Positions 51,505-60,477 of a stretch of DNA of 64,000 bases are shown in pieces. Both the position numbers and the translations under genes were made by a program. Source of the DNA: Escherichia phage Ecwhy_1; sequence record MH791411.1. One strand, 5' to 3'. Each line of letters starts with the position of its first letter. Within the stretch, counting starts at the first letter, position 1. Under the pieces are notes generated by a model, which worked only from the letters and a program-made list of their open reading frames with translations, searched no databases and was not told the DNA's origin.

Positions 51505-52323
51505 TTAATTAGTTCGAGTATTATATTCGTACTCAAATGTATATACTAAATCTTTATCACAGTTTGGGTTACTTGCATCAAGAATATCACTGTTAGTAAT
51601 CATCCATTCAATATAGTTCAATGGAACAGTTTCCATTGGTTCGCCTTTGTGTTTACCAAATGGCATGAATTTATAACGCATTGGTGTATTACAGAATGTT
51701 ACGATTTGTTCACCAATGTCACCATTAGGGTCAATATGTCCACGTTCAATCGCAACTTCAATCAATTTGATTAGAACTTGATAACACATAAACACGTCAT
51801 CTTTTGCTGCGTGAGCATTGACTGCACGATGTACATCACGATAGCAACCAAATTTATACCACAAATAACTTAGAGTTAAGTTTTTAAATTCAGTGTCTTC
51901 TGCAAACATCTTCTTAGCTAAACGAAGGGTACAAATCCATTTATCTTCATCGAGCAAGTACTGCGAAACTGAGTTACGATATTTATATTCGTTATCTACC
52001 ATCATTCGGCGGTCAAATTGAACGTTGTGTCCAATAAAATAATTACGACACCCCATTAGTGCGTCAATGTTTTCTAAGTCATCTTTATAACCAATACAGT
52101 TTGCTACATCTTCAGTACTGATAAAATGCACAGCACTTGCTTCTGGTGGTATATCTTTTAGTGGTTTATAACGCAAAGTGTAGTTATCAATAGTATCAAT
52201 ATTCTCATGTGCATCGTGAGGATATGAAATACTAAATTCAATAATATCATCTTCACTTTCGACACCAGTTGTTTCGGTGTCTAGTACTGATACGTTTGAT
52301 AGGAACTCATCTAATTTTGTCAT
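51505..52323 (-). CDS. DnaQ-like (DEDDh) 3'-5' exonuclease, ExoX-like with C-terminal KHKG-containing extension
   Basis: LDTETTG, GHNVQFD, HRAVNAHAAKDD, C-terminal FMPFGKHKGEPMETVPLNYIEWM. Confidence 0.65.
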   Translation of the reverse strand: MTKLDEFLSNVSVLDTETTGVESEDDIIEFSISYPHDAHENIDTIDNYTLRYKPLKDIPPEASAVHFISTEDVANCIGYKDDLENIDALMGCRNYFIGHNVQFDRRMMVDNEYKYRNSVSQYLLDEDKWICTLRLAKKMFAEDTEFKNLTLSYLWYKFGCYRDVHRAVNAHAAKDDVFMCYQVLIKLIEVAIERGHIDPNGDIGEQIVTFCNTPMRYKFMPFGKHKGEPMETVPLNYIEWMITNSDILDASNPNCDKDLVYTFEYEYNTRTN

Positions 52324-52332
52324 TTTATTCTC

Positions 52333-52361
52333 GCATAGAAAAAGGACGCGTAATGCGTCCT
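52333..52361 (-). terminator. intrinsic terminator (AGGACGC-GUAAU-GCGUCCU + UUUUUCUAUG)
   Basis: hairpin 52343-52361 after the stop of 52371..52832. Confidence 0.55.
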
Positions 52362-52370
52362 TATGGATAG

Positions 52371-52832
52371 TTATTCTAAACGTGCATCTTCAATACCAGC
52401 AGCACGTAGTCTCACAATATTGTTTAACTGAAAAGCTTTCATCTCTAAGGATTTAACAATACTGGAAAACGTATTACGGATATATGATACTTCATTTATT
52501 AGTTCGGATAATTCACAAACTTCTTTATCACCTTCAACATACTTTTTACAGTCAGAAGATGAGAGTGCTCGACGATATGCTTCAAGGAAATATTTAAACT
52601 TTTCAGCTTGTAGTTGACGCATTTCAATTTCTAGCATTTCAAGTACCGCTTCTAGTTCTTGAAGCTGACTGAGACGAGTCTCATGCCAGCCTGGAATCTC
52701 CTGAGCAATCTTTTCAATGATGCCAATCTTTTTAACTTCACGACGAGCTTCTTCAGTTTCTTTTTCGAAGTGTTCAATCATGTCGATTATTTTAGATTTA
52801 TCATCTTTGATGATCCAATGCCAAGGTTTCAT
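52371..52832 (-). CDS. uvsY: UvsY-like recombination mediator (tentative)
   Basis: sits between uvsX and the exonuclease/uvsW genes; C-terminal SSIVKSLEMKAFQLNNIVRLRAAG versus T4 UvsY ALDAIKSRGFAIKHIQDMRAFEAG (from memory). Confidence 0.4.
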   Translation of the reverse strand: MKPWHWIIKDDKSKIIDMIEHFEKETEEARREVKKIGIIEKIAQEIPGWHETRLSQLQELEAVLEMLEIEMRQLQAEKFKYFLEAYRRALSSSDCKKYVEGDKEVCELSELINEVSYIRNTFSSIVKSLEMKAFQLNNIVRLRAAGIEDARLE

Positions 52833-53950
52833 TATTCCTCACTACTTCCAATATCAGTACCAAATGATTCATCACCTTTTTCTTCTTCTTTGACTTCTTC
52901 AATCAAAGGGTGACGTTTGAATTGATTCATAACTAAATCAAGACAAGAATCTTCATTACGCATCCATTCTTTACGATATTTTAGAATCTGTTCACCAGTG
53001 TCAATATCAACGTACATTAGACGGTTACCAGATTTAACGATAAGTTCATATTTCTCGAACATATCTAGTAGACCACTGCGTGGGTCCATACCTTTATCCC
53101 AAGGAATTTTAATCTCAACATCTTCAAATGGTTTGTTGTAACGAGTCTTCATGACTTTACATTTAGAACGAATACCACTTACATCTGAAGTCTTGTTGCC
53201 TTCTTCATCTTCTTTAAGTTTTAGTTTACCCATTGCGATAACCATAGAAGATGCATAAATCAAACCACTACCACCAGATACTTTTGGATCAGGGTTGAAC
53301 ATATCTTGGGATTCATAACTATGGTTTACACAAACCATACCAATGTTAAGTGAACCAATCGAGTTTACGCAGTTGGTGATGTAAGCTTTAAGCTGTTTAG
53401 GTTTGTGACCCATATCACCTTTCAAGTTACCAGCTTTCATCTGGTCATTAGCAACTTCAGTATTCAACATACCAATTGAGTCGATAATGAATAATACTTT
53501 TTGACGTTCTTCTTTAGGAGTATTTTCGTATTCTTTACGATACCCTTCGATGAACTCATAGGTAAATTTAGCAACATCACCAATCATACCCATGTTTACT
53601 TTTAGTAGTTTTTCTTCTGAAGTGTCTACACCTAGTGCTTGTAGCCAATCTGAATCCAATGCGTTCTCGGAATCAATCATAACAACAAAGATACCTTGTT
53701 GTTGTGCTTCACGGGCGATGTTTCCAGAAACGATAAATGATTTACCAGAACCAGATTCACCAGCAAACATTGTTACTTTACCTAGTGGAATACCACGGTC
53801 AAAATAACCACTAATACGATAGTTCAAAGCAAAGTTACCAGTACTAATCCATGTATCAGGATCATGAAAGCCTACGCTAACACCAGTATTCTTTTTAACG
53901 CTACCAGTACTATTTTTTAGAATGTTTGCAAAACCACTTGTCATTTTCAT
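52832..53950 (-). CDS. uvsX: UvsX recombinase (RecA family)
   Basis: Walker A GESGSGKS, Walker B FIIDSIG, C-terminal DPRSGLLDMFEKYELIVKSG as in T4 UvsX DPYSGLLDMALELGFVVK. Confidence 0.85.
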   Translation of the reverse strand: MKMTSGFANILKNSTGSVKKNTGVSVGFHDPDTWISTGNFALNYRISGYFDRGIPLGKVTMFAGESGSGKSFIVSGNIAREAQQQGIFVVMIDSENALDSDWLQALGVDTSEEKLLKVNMGMIGDVAKFTYEFIEGYRKEYENTPKEERQKVLFIIDSIGMLNTEVANDQMKAGNLKGDMGHKPKQLKAYITNCVNSIGSLNIGMVCVNHSYESQDMFNPDPKVSGGSGLIYASSMVIAMGKLKLKEDEEGNKTSDVSGIRSKCKVMKTRYNKPFEDVEIKIPWDKGMDPRSGLLDMFEKYELIVKSGNRLMYVDIDTGEQILKYRKEWMRNEDSCLDLVMNQFKRHPLIEEVKEEEKGDESFGTDIGSSEE

Positions 53951-53969
53951 AATTCGCTCCTTGAATTTT

Positions 53970-54001
53970 ATGAAATAAAACGGGGCAAACTCCGTTGCCC
54001 C
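53970..54001 (-). terminator. intrinsic terminator (GGGGCAA-CGGAGU-UUGCCCC + UUUUAUUU)
   Basis: hairpin 53982-54001 after the gp32 stop. Confidence 0.55.
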
Positions 54002-54019
54002 TTAACTTTTCAAATACTA

Positions 54020-55087
54020 TTACTTACCTTGTTGTTTCAAACGAGCAACTAGTGCAGATGCAGAAAGTTGTTCTTTTGGAGCTTCAGCTACTGGTGCTGG
54101 TGCAGCAGCTACTGGTTCAGCAGCAGGAGTAGGAGTAGCTACTGGTGCTTGCGGAGCAGGAGTTTGTGCAGGAGCAGGTTGTTGTACTGGAGCTTGTGGA
54201 GCAGGTTTGTTTTCACTAATAGTACCAGTTGTTGGTTTTTGTACACCTGCTGGACGGTAAGCGAAAGCCCAACGTGCAGGGTCATAAGGTTTACCATCAA
54301 CAGATGCTTCGAACATTTCTTCGATAGCTTTTAGTTCTTCTGGAGTTGGTTGTTTTGGCATAAAATCATTTAGATTATATAGACCAAACTTTTCAATCGC
54401 TGCCAGTTCTTCTTCATTGAGTGGACGCTCGGACATGGAGAATTGAGACATGTCATAGCTATTGTAACCACCACCATTCTTAGTTTTAACAATACCAAAG
54501 TCACGACCGTGAATGTAGTGAGTTGGTAGTTCTTTGATGCCTGGGTTTAGCAGGATAGATTTAACTTTATCAAAGATATCTTTGTTAGCTAGGATACGAC
54601 GGATTGGGTTTTCTGGAGCAATATCGTCTTTTACTGCTACGCTATCAGGAGCAACGAAACATTGCATTAGATAGGTTTTCTTTTTCCAGTAACGACCAGC
54701 CATTGCTTTCAGTTCTTCGTTTCCAGTTTCATTCGCACTTTGGAACCATTGACGTACTTCTTTAAGAATTGGACATGATTTAGGAACCCACATTTCGTTA
54801 CATGGTACTTGAACGGTAACTTTATCGGTGTGCATACCAACAATACCTTGGAACGTTAGGTTGATCATATCACGTTCACGCCAGAAGAATGGGTTAGACT
54901 CATCAGCATCTGGTAGAAAACGTAGGTTTAGTGGTTCATTGTAAGGGACATTCCAGAAAGCTAGGAAAGAATCGGCTTTACGTTCACCTGTAAATGTACC
55001 ATTCTTCTGTGCTTCTGCTTTTTCTTGTTCAGCTTTTAGTTTTGCACGAATTTCAGCTAGAGTTTGCATATTGGGCTTCCTTGTCAT
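54020..55087 (-). CDS. 32: single-stranded DNA-binding protein, gp32-like, with Pro/Ala/Gln-rich C-terminal tail
   Basis: Cys/His zinc site pattern (PCNEMW...CPILKEV...), ELKAMAGRYWKKKTY as in the T4 gp32 core; C-terminus PAPQAPVQQPAPAQTPAPQAPVATPTPAAEPVAAAPAPVAEAP. Confidence 0.75.
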   Translation of the reverse strand: MTRKPNMQTLAEIRAKLKAEQEKAEAQKNGTFTGERKADSFLAFWNVPYNEPLNLRFLPDADESNPFFWRERDMINLTFQGIVGMHTDKVTVQVPCNEMWVPKSCPILKEVRQWFQSANETGNEELKAMAGRYWKKKTYLMQCFVAPDSVAVKDDIAPENPIRRILANKDIFDKVKSILLNPGIKELPTHYIHGRDFGIVKTKNGGGYNSYDMSQFSMSERPLNEEELAAIEKFGLYNLNDFMPKQPTPEELKAIEEMFEASVDGKPYDPARWAFAYRPAGVQKPTTGTISENKPAPQAPVQQPAPAQTPAPQAPVATPTPAAEPVAAAPAPVAEAPKEQLSASALVARLKQQGK

Positions 55088-55156
55088 TAGTTTGTTTGTT
55101 AAGTTTTAACGGGCTATTAACGTTGATTTGTCTTCATTGACTCATCAACAATTTAC

Positions 55157-55165
55157 ATTATATCA
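55157..55165 (-). promoter_or_regulatory. extended -10 element TGATATAAT (minus strand), proximal copy upstream of gene 32
   Basis: rc(55157-55165) = TGATATAAT; TTGGGA 18 nt upstream as a possible -35. Confidence 0.4.
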
Positions 55166-55232
55166 TGGGATTTTTAACCGTCCCAAGGTTTTTTTACTCT
55201 GTTTGTCAAGGCTCATTGCCCTGACAAACATC

Positions 55233-55241
55233 ATTATATCA
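55233..55241 (-). promoter_or_regulatory. extended -10 element TGATATAAT (minus strand), distal copy upstream of gene 32
   Basis: rc(55233-55241) = TGATATAAT; followed on the transcript by the stem-loop encoded at 55202-55228. Confidence 0.35.
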
Positions 55242-55242
55242 C

Positions 55243-60477
<5,235 letters not shown>

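Follow-up and report, generated by a model that had tools for sequence, protein, structure and literature searches.

The gene 32 protein (gp32) of bacteriophage T4 is the textbook model of a protein that binds single-stranded DNA (an SSB) and coordinates the replisome, and its acidic C-terminal domain is commonly regarded as its defining feature. Among the contacts of T4 gp32 with partners, that with Dda alone has been defined structurally; in it, an Ala-rich amphipathic helix (residues 248-269) places V258, L262 and F265 in a hydrophobic groove with a dissociation constant of about 48 uM (PMC11551737). The acidic segment 273-301 has been proposed to occupy the trough that binds single-stranded DNA (ssDNA) (PMC11551737; see also PMC12424635, PMC12893549), and the acidic C-terminal domain competes with ssDNA for this basic trough (PMC11551737, PMC12424635). 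Here we analyzed a stretch of 64,000 nucleotides from Escherichia phage Ecwhy_1 (record MH791411.1; hereafter the window), in which an earlier note had described a gp32 gene whose product carries a Pro/Ala/Gln-rich C-terminal tail in the place of the acidic domain. The tail consists of a fast-evolving disordered linker and a conserved basic tip, and this design is shared by a very large group of gp32 relatives.

The gene is a minus-strand open reading frame (ORF) of 355 codons (Table 1), and its product is a gp32-type SSB, in agreement with the earlier note. The product matched the Pfam family PF08804 with 29.8 bits against a cutoff (gathering score) of 26.8, and it matched phrog_1192, 'single strand DNA binding protein', with an E value of 1.4e-97, the alignment running from residues 7 to 353 against profile positions 2-326 of 326 and thus including the tail. 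An AlphaFold2 (AF2) model was built from 88 homologs and had a mean predicted local distance difference test (pLDDT) score of 85.5. A Foldseek search with the core of this model (pLDDT >93) recovered the RB69 and T4 gp32 core structures 2a1k and 1gpc (template modelling (TM) scores of 0.70 and 0.69, prob 1.0), and a profile-profile alignment by hhalign against 11 T4-type gp32 sequences gave a probability of 99.1% (E 1.6e-17). A sequence search of the PDB with the whole protein returned only compositional noise from the Pro/Ala-rich tail (EB1, and the 2-oxoglutarate enzyme 8p5r at E 2), so that a fold search was needed to reach gp32. The real start of the gene is more likely the ATG at 55069 (Met7), which has an AAGGAAG Shine-Dalgarno sequence 6 nt upstream (55082-55076); no Shine-Dalgarno sequence was seen before the ATG at 55087, where the mechanical ORF starts. 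The deposited coding sequence of phage fEgEco12, which is the identical gene, and nearly all homologs begin with M[QKA][ST]LAEIRA. The protein therefore probably has 349 residues and begins with MQTLAEIRA at Met7.

The same gp32, 100% identical in amino acid sequence, is present in the Escherichia phages EC.P1, BF17, fEgEco12, Turkey3 and WPEC3/5, which have genomes of 356-384 kb. Its identity is about 84% to the proteins of 121Q/PBECO4 (genus Asteriusvirus) and about 80% over the core to those of RaK2/K64-1. The source of the window is a Rak2/121Q-like jumbo phage and not a T4-like phage. Several deposited genomes already carry an SSB annotation for the gene. Our literature search found Rak2-like SSBs named as gp32 homologs, but it did not find a description of their tail.

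The conserved core ends with …YDPARWAFAYRPAGVQKP, and the last ~70 residues of the protein form the tail, which is a disordered linker rich in Pro, Ala, Gln, Thr and Val followed by an 18-residue tip, KEQLSASALVARLKQQGK. The last 61 residues are exactly the string quoted in the earlier note; their codons occupy 54023..54205 and the stop codon 54020..54022, which makes the placement of the tail at 54020-54200 in that note right within 5 nt. The 52-residue linker, TTGTISENKPAPQAPVQQPAPAQTPAPQAPVATPTPAAEPVAAAPAPVAEAP, contains 29 Pro and Ala residues, compared with a share of 15.4% in the core (binomial p = 2.6e-11), only one large hydrophobic residue among the 52, and only two PxxP motifs. In the AF2 model, residues ~285-340 have pLDDT values of 44-61 and no secondary structure, and the tip contains a helix at residues 343-353 (54029..54061; pLDDT ~72). 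The net charge is +1 for the whole tail (pI 8.1), -2 for the linker and +3 for the last 15 residues (pI 11.2). The protein ends with ...ALVARLKQQGK, and an acidic Pro-Phe motif is absent from its tail. The predicted disorder, the predicted helix, the composition and the charge all bear out the original description of a Pro/Ala-rich linker ending in a short basic helix, and the tip can be classed, on its predicted features, as a basic amphipathic short linear motif. The DNA encoding the tail has a GC content of 48.6%, compared with 36.0% across the window, and the part encoding the linker contains weak tandem repeats of 18 and 21 nt. Two plus-strand ORFs lying beneath the tail (53995..54132 and 54068..54334) were judged to be mechanical by-products of this GC-rich repetitive coding sequence.

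To examine the conservation of the tail, we used two sets of homologs. The close set comprised the best 120 of 5,692 matches from a search of 5.8 billion proteins (44-100% identity), and the representative set comprised the best 150 of 699 clusters (33-60% identity), which had been collected at E<=1e-3 by an exhaustive HMMER search of 1.84 billion representatives at 50% identity. The end of the core was set by a hidden Markov model of the core, and the tip was scored with a position-specific scoring matrix (PSSM), using the 95th percentile of the best within-core score as the threshold. A terminal tip motif above the threshold was found in 118 of the 120 close homologs (98%) and in 120 of the 128 tailed representatives (94%); these percentages are somewhat circular because the tip PSSM was built from part of the scored sequences, although the raw sequence listings agree by eye. 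The consensus of the tip is [SDN]-A-x-D-[IL]-L-A-[RKM]-[IL]-[RK]-x-[RK], or, as a short pattern, [SA]x[DA][IL][LV]A[RK][IL][RK]. The median tail length was 72 residues in the close set and 69 in the representatives, and the median charge of the last 15 residues was +2 in both sets. Members without any tail were absent from the close set and amounted to 7 of 135 representatives. The linker-plus-tip tail is thus typical of the family and not an anomaly of the Ecwhy_1 genome.

The two parts of the tail evolve at very different rates. In three orthologs whose cores are 94-96% identical to that of the window protein, the linkers share only 43-51% of their residues, with gaps at 5-11 positions, whereas the 18-residue tips are 94-100% identical; a fast linker with a conserved tip is the hallmark of a short linear motif borne on a disordered tether. 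Pro, Ala, Gln, Thr, Val and Ser together make up a fraction of 0.80 of the linker in close relatives but of 0.57 in distant relatives, some of whose linkers are acidic or rich in Ser, Thr and Asn. Within the tip, the hydrophobic face is conserved at positions i, i+1 and i+4 ([IL][LV]..[IL]), flanked by Ala and basic residues, and a face conserved in this way is characteristic of protein docking rather than of DNA binding. Extra internal copies of the tip motif are present in 17 of the 128 tailed representatives, from several independent lineages, as exemplified by P0192 (TADLLAKLKKTE…STADLLAKLKARQQG), and such duplication is behaviour typical of short linear motifs. In 23 of the 128, the linker contains an acidic DDxPF/W motif resembling the tip of bacterial SSBs (for example, DDDIPFDT in P0139), and one representative, P0226, ends with DEDSIPY. 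These motifs suggest that some phage gp32 proteins may tap the SSB interactome of the host; the window protein lacks the acidic motif as well as internal tip copies and carries the terminal helix only.

We compared these tails with those of the 11 T4-type gp32 proteins, which were from T4, JS10, Acj61, KP15, a KVP40-like Vibrio phage, two cyanophages, a Methylophilales phage, a Campylobacter phage and two Ackermannviridae-type phages; the T4 sequence used for the charge comparison was checked against a T4 record. Residues 254-301 of T4 gp32 have a net charge of -12 (pI 4.05), and the last 60 residues of all 11 proteins, which include those of Straboviridae, Kyanoviridae, Ackermannviridae and Campylobacter phages, have net charges of -2 to -14. 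The contrast in charge drawn in the earlier note is therefore real, and the tail is unusual when it is set against T4-type gp32 (11 of 11 net negative), but it is not unusual within its own lineage, where nearly all members share the design. Since the tail is near neutral and the tip is basic, the family is without an acidic 'flap' of the T4 type, which acts as a DNA mimic and blocks the ssDNA trough, and the electrostatic functions of the T4 type cannot operate in the same way with a terminal helix of opposite charge.

Most T4-type tails nevertheless terminate in an amphipathic tip whose hydrophobic residues are spaced alike (Table 1). The T4-type tip was among the top three matches to the family tip PSSM in about 4-5 of the 11 proteins (T-even and KVP40-like), with scores that equal that of a core helix and are no better, and the tips of the cyanophage, Campylobacter-phage and Ackermannviridae proteins gave no score with this PSSM; the homology of the tips is therefore suggestive and not established. 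The recruiting element across gp32 proteins appears to be a tethered amphipathic helix, with acidity serving a separate, autoinhibitory role as a DNA mimic. The idea that the acidic residues of T4 gp32 themselves make the partner contacts, from which a different interaction mode had been deduced for this tail, is outdated, because Dda is bound by the Ala-rich helix 248-269 (PMC11551737). What remains of that deduction is that the charge, the position and probably the partner differ; the presentation of an amphipathic helix on a tether is probably the same in kind.

The explanation that we favor, and that we consider moderately probable, is that the Pro/Ala segment serves as a flexible tether and the tip as a helix that docks onto one or several phage proteins of replication or recombination. 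The linker of ~52 residues, disordered and probably extended, would be free to drift, expand and contract in sequence, and the C-terminal amphipathic helix (S-A-S-A-L-V-A-R-L-K) would act as a tethered docking peptide, whose Leu/Val/Leu face would insert into a groove on the partner. Such docking would recruit partners to the SSB-coated ssDNA or hand the ssDNA over to them. This explanation draws on the conservation pattern, the hydrophobic face, the motif duplications, the SSB-tip-like motifs residing in the same tails and the precedent of T4 gp32 and Dda. UvsX and UvsY, whose genes lie directly downstream, are plausible candidate partners, and helicases or primase are equally possible. The candidacy of UvsX and UvsY is supported by synteny, in that the order gp32-UvsX-UvsY is kept in relatives with only 46-57% gp32 identity (a Vibrio jumbo phage and contigs of marine origin, 85-297 kb long), where the ~151-residue neighbor was confirmed as UvsY (46-54% identity). 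Three points weigh against docking onto a partner: the AF2 confidence of the tip helix is only moderate (~72), the tail-less representatives (7 of 135) keep the N-terminal motif described below, so that the tail is not essential to SSB function in every lineage, and the tip resembles the N-terminal helix of the protein itself, which could mean self-interaction.

The last point requires a closer look at the N-terminus. The AF2 model places a helix at residues 10-28, and hhalign paired it with the N-terminal helix of T4 gp32 (T4 residues ~8-21, just past the KRKST 'LAST' motif); the helix at residues 9-28 can thus be regarded, from these alignments, as the counterpart of the N-terminal cooperativity domain of T4 gp32, and it may likewise mediate cooperative binding. 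Its motif, [ST]L[AE]E[ILM]RA[KR]L, hardly varies among family members (Arg is kept in 117 and Leu in 112 of 134 sequences), and the PSSM built from it had its top match in the N-terminal 5-15 region in 7 of the 11 T4-like gp32 proteins. The T4 KRKST motif is absent from the probable mature N-terminus (MQTLAEIRA).

The resemblance of this helix (TLAEIRAKLK) to the tip (SASALVARLK), which in the family reads [ST]L[AE]E[ILM]RA[KR]L against A-x-D[IL]LA[RK][IL], raises the alternative of self-regulation by mimicry. Because the N-terminal helix corresponds to the T4 cooperativity domain (PMC12893549), the tip could compete for the same docking site on the neighboring core, or add to it, and would then adjust the cooperativity, capping or turnover of the filament as a substitute for the acidic flap of T4. 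The N-motif PSSM had its best match outside the N-terminus within the last 26 residues in 87 of 134 sequences, and the tip PSSM had its best match outside the C-terminus within the first 30 residues in 80 of 134, where about 10% is expected by chance in either case. The order of residues in the tip, beyond their composition, mattered in 51% of the sequences at p<=0.05 (5% expected). Among all window ORFs of at least 100 residues, the gp32 tip was the best non-self match to the N-motif PSSM (14.1 bits); when the tip and the N motif were sought as a shared hub motif in other window proteins, notable cross-matches were confined to gp32, and the primase N-terminus reached a nonsignificant 9.7 bits. 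Precedents also exist, since the C-terminal helices of the PRD1 SSB P12 mediate cooperativity (PMC11886824) and, as cited in PMC12424635, optical tweezers work on T4 gp32 found that cooperative interactions are disrupted only when the C-terminal domain is complete.

However, equivalent positions of the N motif and the tip do not covary, identical residues occurring at the frequency expected from column composition, which weakens the idea of mimicry, and where the N motif has a near-invariant Arg, the tip has a Leu that is likewise nearly invariant. Both elements are short basic amphipathic helices, and the registers 0 and +4 match about equally well, indicating that part of the similarity is generic helical periodicity. 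The N motif is also the more conserved of the two (mean column entropy 1.81 bits against 2.21 bits for the tip), and family members without a tail retain it. The lower variability of the N motif together with the lack of covariation fits a tip that tracks lineage-specific partners rather than a conserved core. We therefore regard self-regulation by mimicry as rather unlikely, and it is similarly improbable that the tip acts as a decoy by copying the N-terminal helix and competing with it in cis or in trans, with the T4-type LDDLLxxL as an acidic version of the same ancestral element. If the tip were such a decoy, it would constitute a built-in, non-electrostatic switch for filament assembly and disassembly that replaces the acidic flap of T4, and a specific role of the conserved LDDLLxxL tip in T4 would have been overlooked.

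It is still less probable that the linker itself is the functional part, through PxxP or polyproline-II contacts with oligonucleotide/oligosaccharide-binding (OB) folds or through condensates at replication factories, with the tip being secondary. The extreme composition and the conserved length of the tail (about 70 residues across the family) would agree with such a role, as would the influence of Escherichia coli SSB linkers on cooperativity and phase separation, for which a linker/OB-fold model has been proposed. The linker sequence, however, is not conserved even among near-identical phages, the two PxxP motifs are few, the richness in Pro and Ala is no family constant, and the tip is the only conserved element of the tail. 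Targeting to the virion, in which the tail would direct the SSB into the capsid to be packaged or ejected with the DNA, appears very improbable. SSB orthologs have been detected by mass spectrometry in purified virions of phAPEC6 (Gp204, four peptides) and reportedly of RaK2 (PMC7247149, PMC5259590), the ortholog is annotated as 'structural protein' in the records of phages 121Q, UB and 7t3, and the neighbors of the gene are a virion structural protein gene on one side and recombination genes on the other. The peptide counts are low, however, and virion preparations are often contaminated by abundant proteins that bind DNA; moreover, the same tail architecture extends across a very wide metagenomic family, and the tip is unlike known capsid-targeting sequences. 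The ortholog of the neighboring RecA-like protein was also detected in virions (PMC7247149). A functionless low-complexity extension, which the repeats and indels of the fast-evolving linker and the few tail-less members might suggest, is hardly credible, given that the tip prevails at 94-98% from 100% down to ~33% overall identity and that the length of the tail is constrained.

The folded core of the window protein has a conserved C-terminal extension specific to the family, YDPxRWxxxYRPxGV. Its region corresponding to the T4 zinc site (residues 80-108; 54764-54850, minus strand) was aligned by hhalign so that T4 His64, Cys77, Cys87 and Cys90 correspond to Q80, C96, C105 and L108, respectively. 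Of these four, C96 and C105 alone are invariant across the family; the T4 site His64-Cys77-Cys87-Cys90 is thus half kept and not complete, and the subdomain may bind no metal or may bind it through other ligands, as far as the alignment tells.

The gene order around gp32 is terminase, virion structural protein, gp32, UvsX, UvsY, an ExoX-like exonuclease and a helicase, and genes for a B-family polymerase, a clamp, an RNase H-like nuclease, a primase and a second helicase are nearby. The block at 51505-56547 (minus strand), with the genes for the large terminase, a virion protein of ~450 residues, gp32, UvsX and UvsY, is syntenic to three sequences (L014, L016 and L017), which are marine metagenomic contigs and the Vibrio jumbo phage, and it is the mark of a very broad clade of large phages related to Rak2. 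The exonuclease downstream of uvsY (51505-52323, minus strand) is of the DnaQ/RNase T type, with C-terminal matches to PF12843 (24 bits) and, weakly, to PF20600, i.e. to the 'quorum-sensing-regulated virulence factor' and ExoX-like C-terminal domains. Rak2-like phages have been reported to lack the gp59 helicase loader (PMC5259590). Our tblastn search with T4 gp59 yielded no convincing match in the 64-kb window, its absence from the whole genome resting on that report; the same query was run against a phage collection, for which the best 30 of 1968 match records were considered. The set of partners probably differs from that of T4.

A strong hairpin resembling an intrinsic terminator and a sigma-70-like promoter flank the gene (Table 1), suggesting, as far as such consensus elements can, that gp32 may be transcribed at a high level as a unit of its own, from which read-through would reach uvsX-uvsY. 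The 5' leader of gp32 (55070-55160, minus strand) contains a small hairpin followed by an A/C-rich unstructured stretch of ~35 nt that leads into the Shine-Dalgarno sequence. The leader is loosely reminiscent of the translational operator of T4 gene 32, but neither an Rfam scan of the gene and leader nor folding of the leader (z = -1.55) revealed an autoregulatory pseudoknot like that of T4 gene 32.

Table 1. Features of the gp32 locus in the window, and tail features of gp32 homologs.
Feature	Position	Strand	Basis or members
gp32-type single-stranded-DNA-binding protein gene	54020..55087	-	Pfam, PHROG, AF2/Foldseek, profile-profile alignment
N-terminal amphipathic helix, residues 9-28 (TLAEIRAKLKAEQEK...)	55004..55063	-	AF2, motif, hhalign
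Folded gp32 core, residues 41-283	54239..54967	-	AF2 pLDDT 93-98; Foldseek 2a1k/1gpc
Disordered Pro/Ala/Gln/Thr/Val-rich linker, residues 286-337	54077..54232	-	AF2, composition, ortholog comparison
Conserved C-terminal tip KEQLSASALVARLKQQGK, residues 338-355	54023..54076	-	Conservation, motif score, AF2, charge
Sigma-70-like promoter, extended -10 (TGaTATAAT), upstream of gp32	55157..55186	-	10/12 matches, TG present; consensus match only
Intrinsic-terminator-like hairpin, GGGGCAACGGAGTTTGCCCC then GTTTTATTT (T-run), between gp32 stop and uvsX start	53982..54001	-	
UvsX, directly downstream of gp32	52832..53950	-	Pfam/PHROG matches
UvsY, downstream of UvsX	52371..52832	-	Pfam/PHROG matches
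Duplicated tip motif in linker			P0023, P0025, P0026 (RaK2 group), P0121, P0125, P0135, P0137, P0192, P0222, P0235, P0248, others
Tails with acidic motif like DDDIPF			P0139, P0127, P0132, P0133, P0135, P0136, P0182, P0190, P0192, P0205, P0207, P0264, P0226
T4-like tails with internal D-D-x-P-F/W			KP15 (L004), Campylobacter phage F365 (L009)
Tail-less members ending right after core, N motif kept			P0162, P0201, P0209, P0243, P0245, P0246, P0250, P0255
T4-type tips			T4 LDDLLNDL; JS10 LDDLLAGL; Acj61 LDDLLDEI; KP15 LDKLLDM; KVP40-like LDALLADL
T4-type tips, others			Cyanophage LSYFAKLAE; Ackermannviridae-type IEDFEAFLKQN and LDDFERMLAE

Together, these results describe a very large sister family of T4-type gp32 (699 clusters, mostly from uncultured and jumbo phages), in which the gp32 core and the N-terminal helix are kept and the acidic tail is swapped. 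They suggest that the common denominator of both families is the terminal amphipathic helix and not acidity, which refines the view of which part of the tail carries specificity. A peptide of ~15 residues corresponding to the tip could be used directly as bait for partner proteins in the replisomes of jumbo phages, from which gp59 is reportedly missing.

Compared with T4-type gp32, the window protein has the same core fold (TM 0.69-0.70), the N-terminal amphipathic helix and the same plan of N-terminal helix, core and disordered tail. Its core, however, is ~16-18% identical and has the additional conserved YDPxRW..YRPxG segment, only two of the four zinc ligands are kept, and no counterpart of the helix formed by T4 residues 248-269 follows directly on the core. 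Its tail has a net charge of +1 instead of -12 and is without the acidic DNA-mimic segment, and its tip is basic rather than acidic. The gene also lies beside uvsX and uvsY, whereas gene 32 of T4-type phages lies beside gene 59 for the helicase loader.

Comparable arrangements are known outside the gp32 proteins. In the 2-oxo-acid dehydrogenase E2 chains, Ala/Pro-rich inter-domain linkers form an extended, semi-stiff swinging-arm tether; these proteins are unrelated to gp32, the E value of 2 being not significant, and the likeness to the window linker lies only in the physical character of an Ala/Pro-rich composition. In viral SSBs such as PRD1 P12 and ICP8 of herpes simplex virus 1, in which a C-terminal helix mediates cooperativity, a tethered C-terminal helix can dock on the neighboring protomer and thereby provide filament cooperativity. 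The helix of PRD1 P12, however, directly follows the core, with a disordered tail beyond it, whereas that of the window protein is placed past a linker of ~52 residues, and the window protein already has a putative N-terminal cooperativity helix. The C-terminal region of bacterial SSBs shares with the tail described here a compositionally biased, fast-evolving disordered linker of similar length and a conserved terminal motif as an interaction hub, although bacterial SSBs are homotetrameric OB-fold proteins with an acidic, extended DDDIPF tip and the window protein has the monomeric gp32 fold and a basic helical tip. A disordered linker with a terminal interaction motif is thus a standard concept for SSBs, and what is new here is a large sister family of gp32 in which a near-neutral tether carries a charge-reversed, basic tip.

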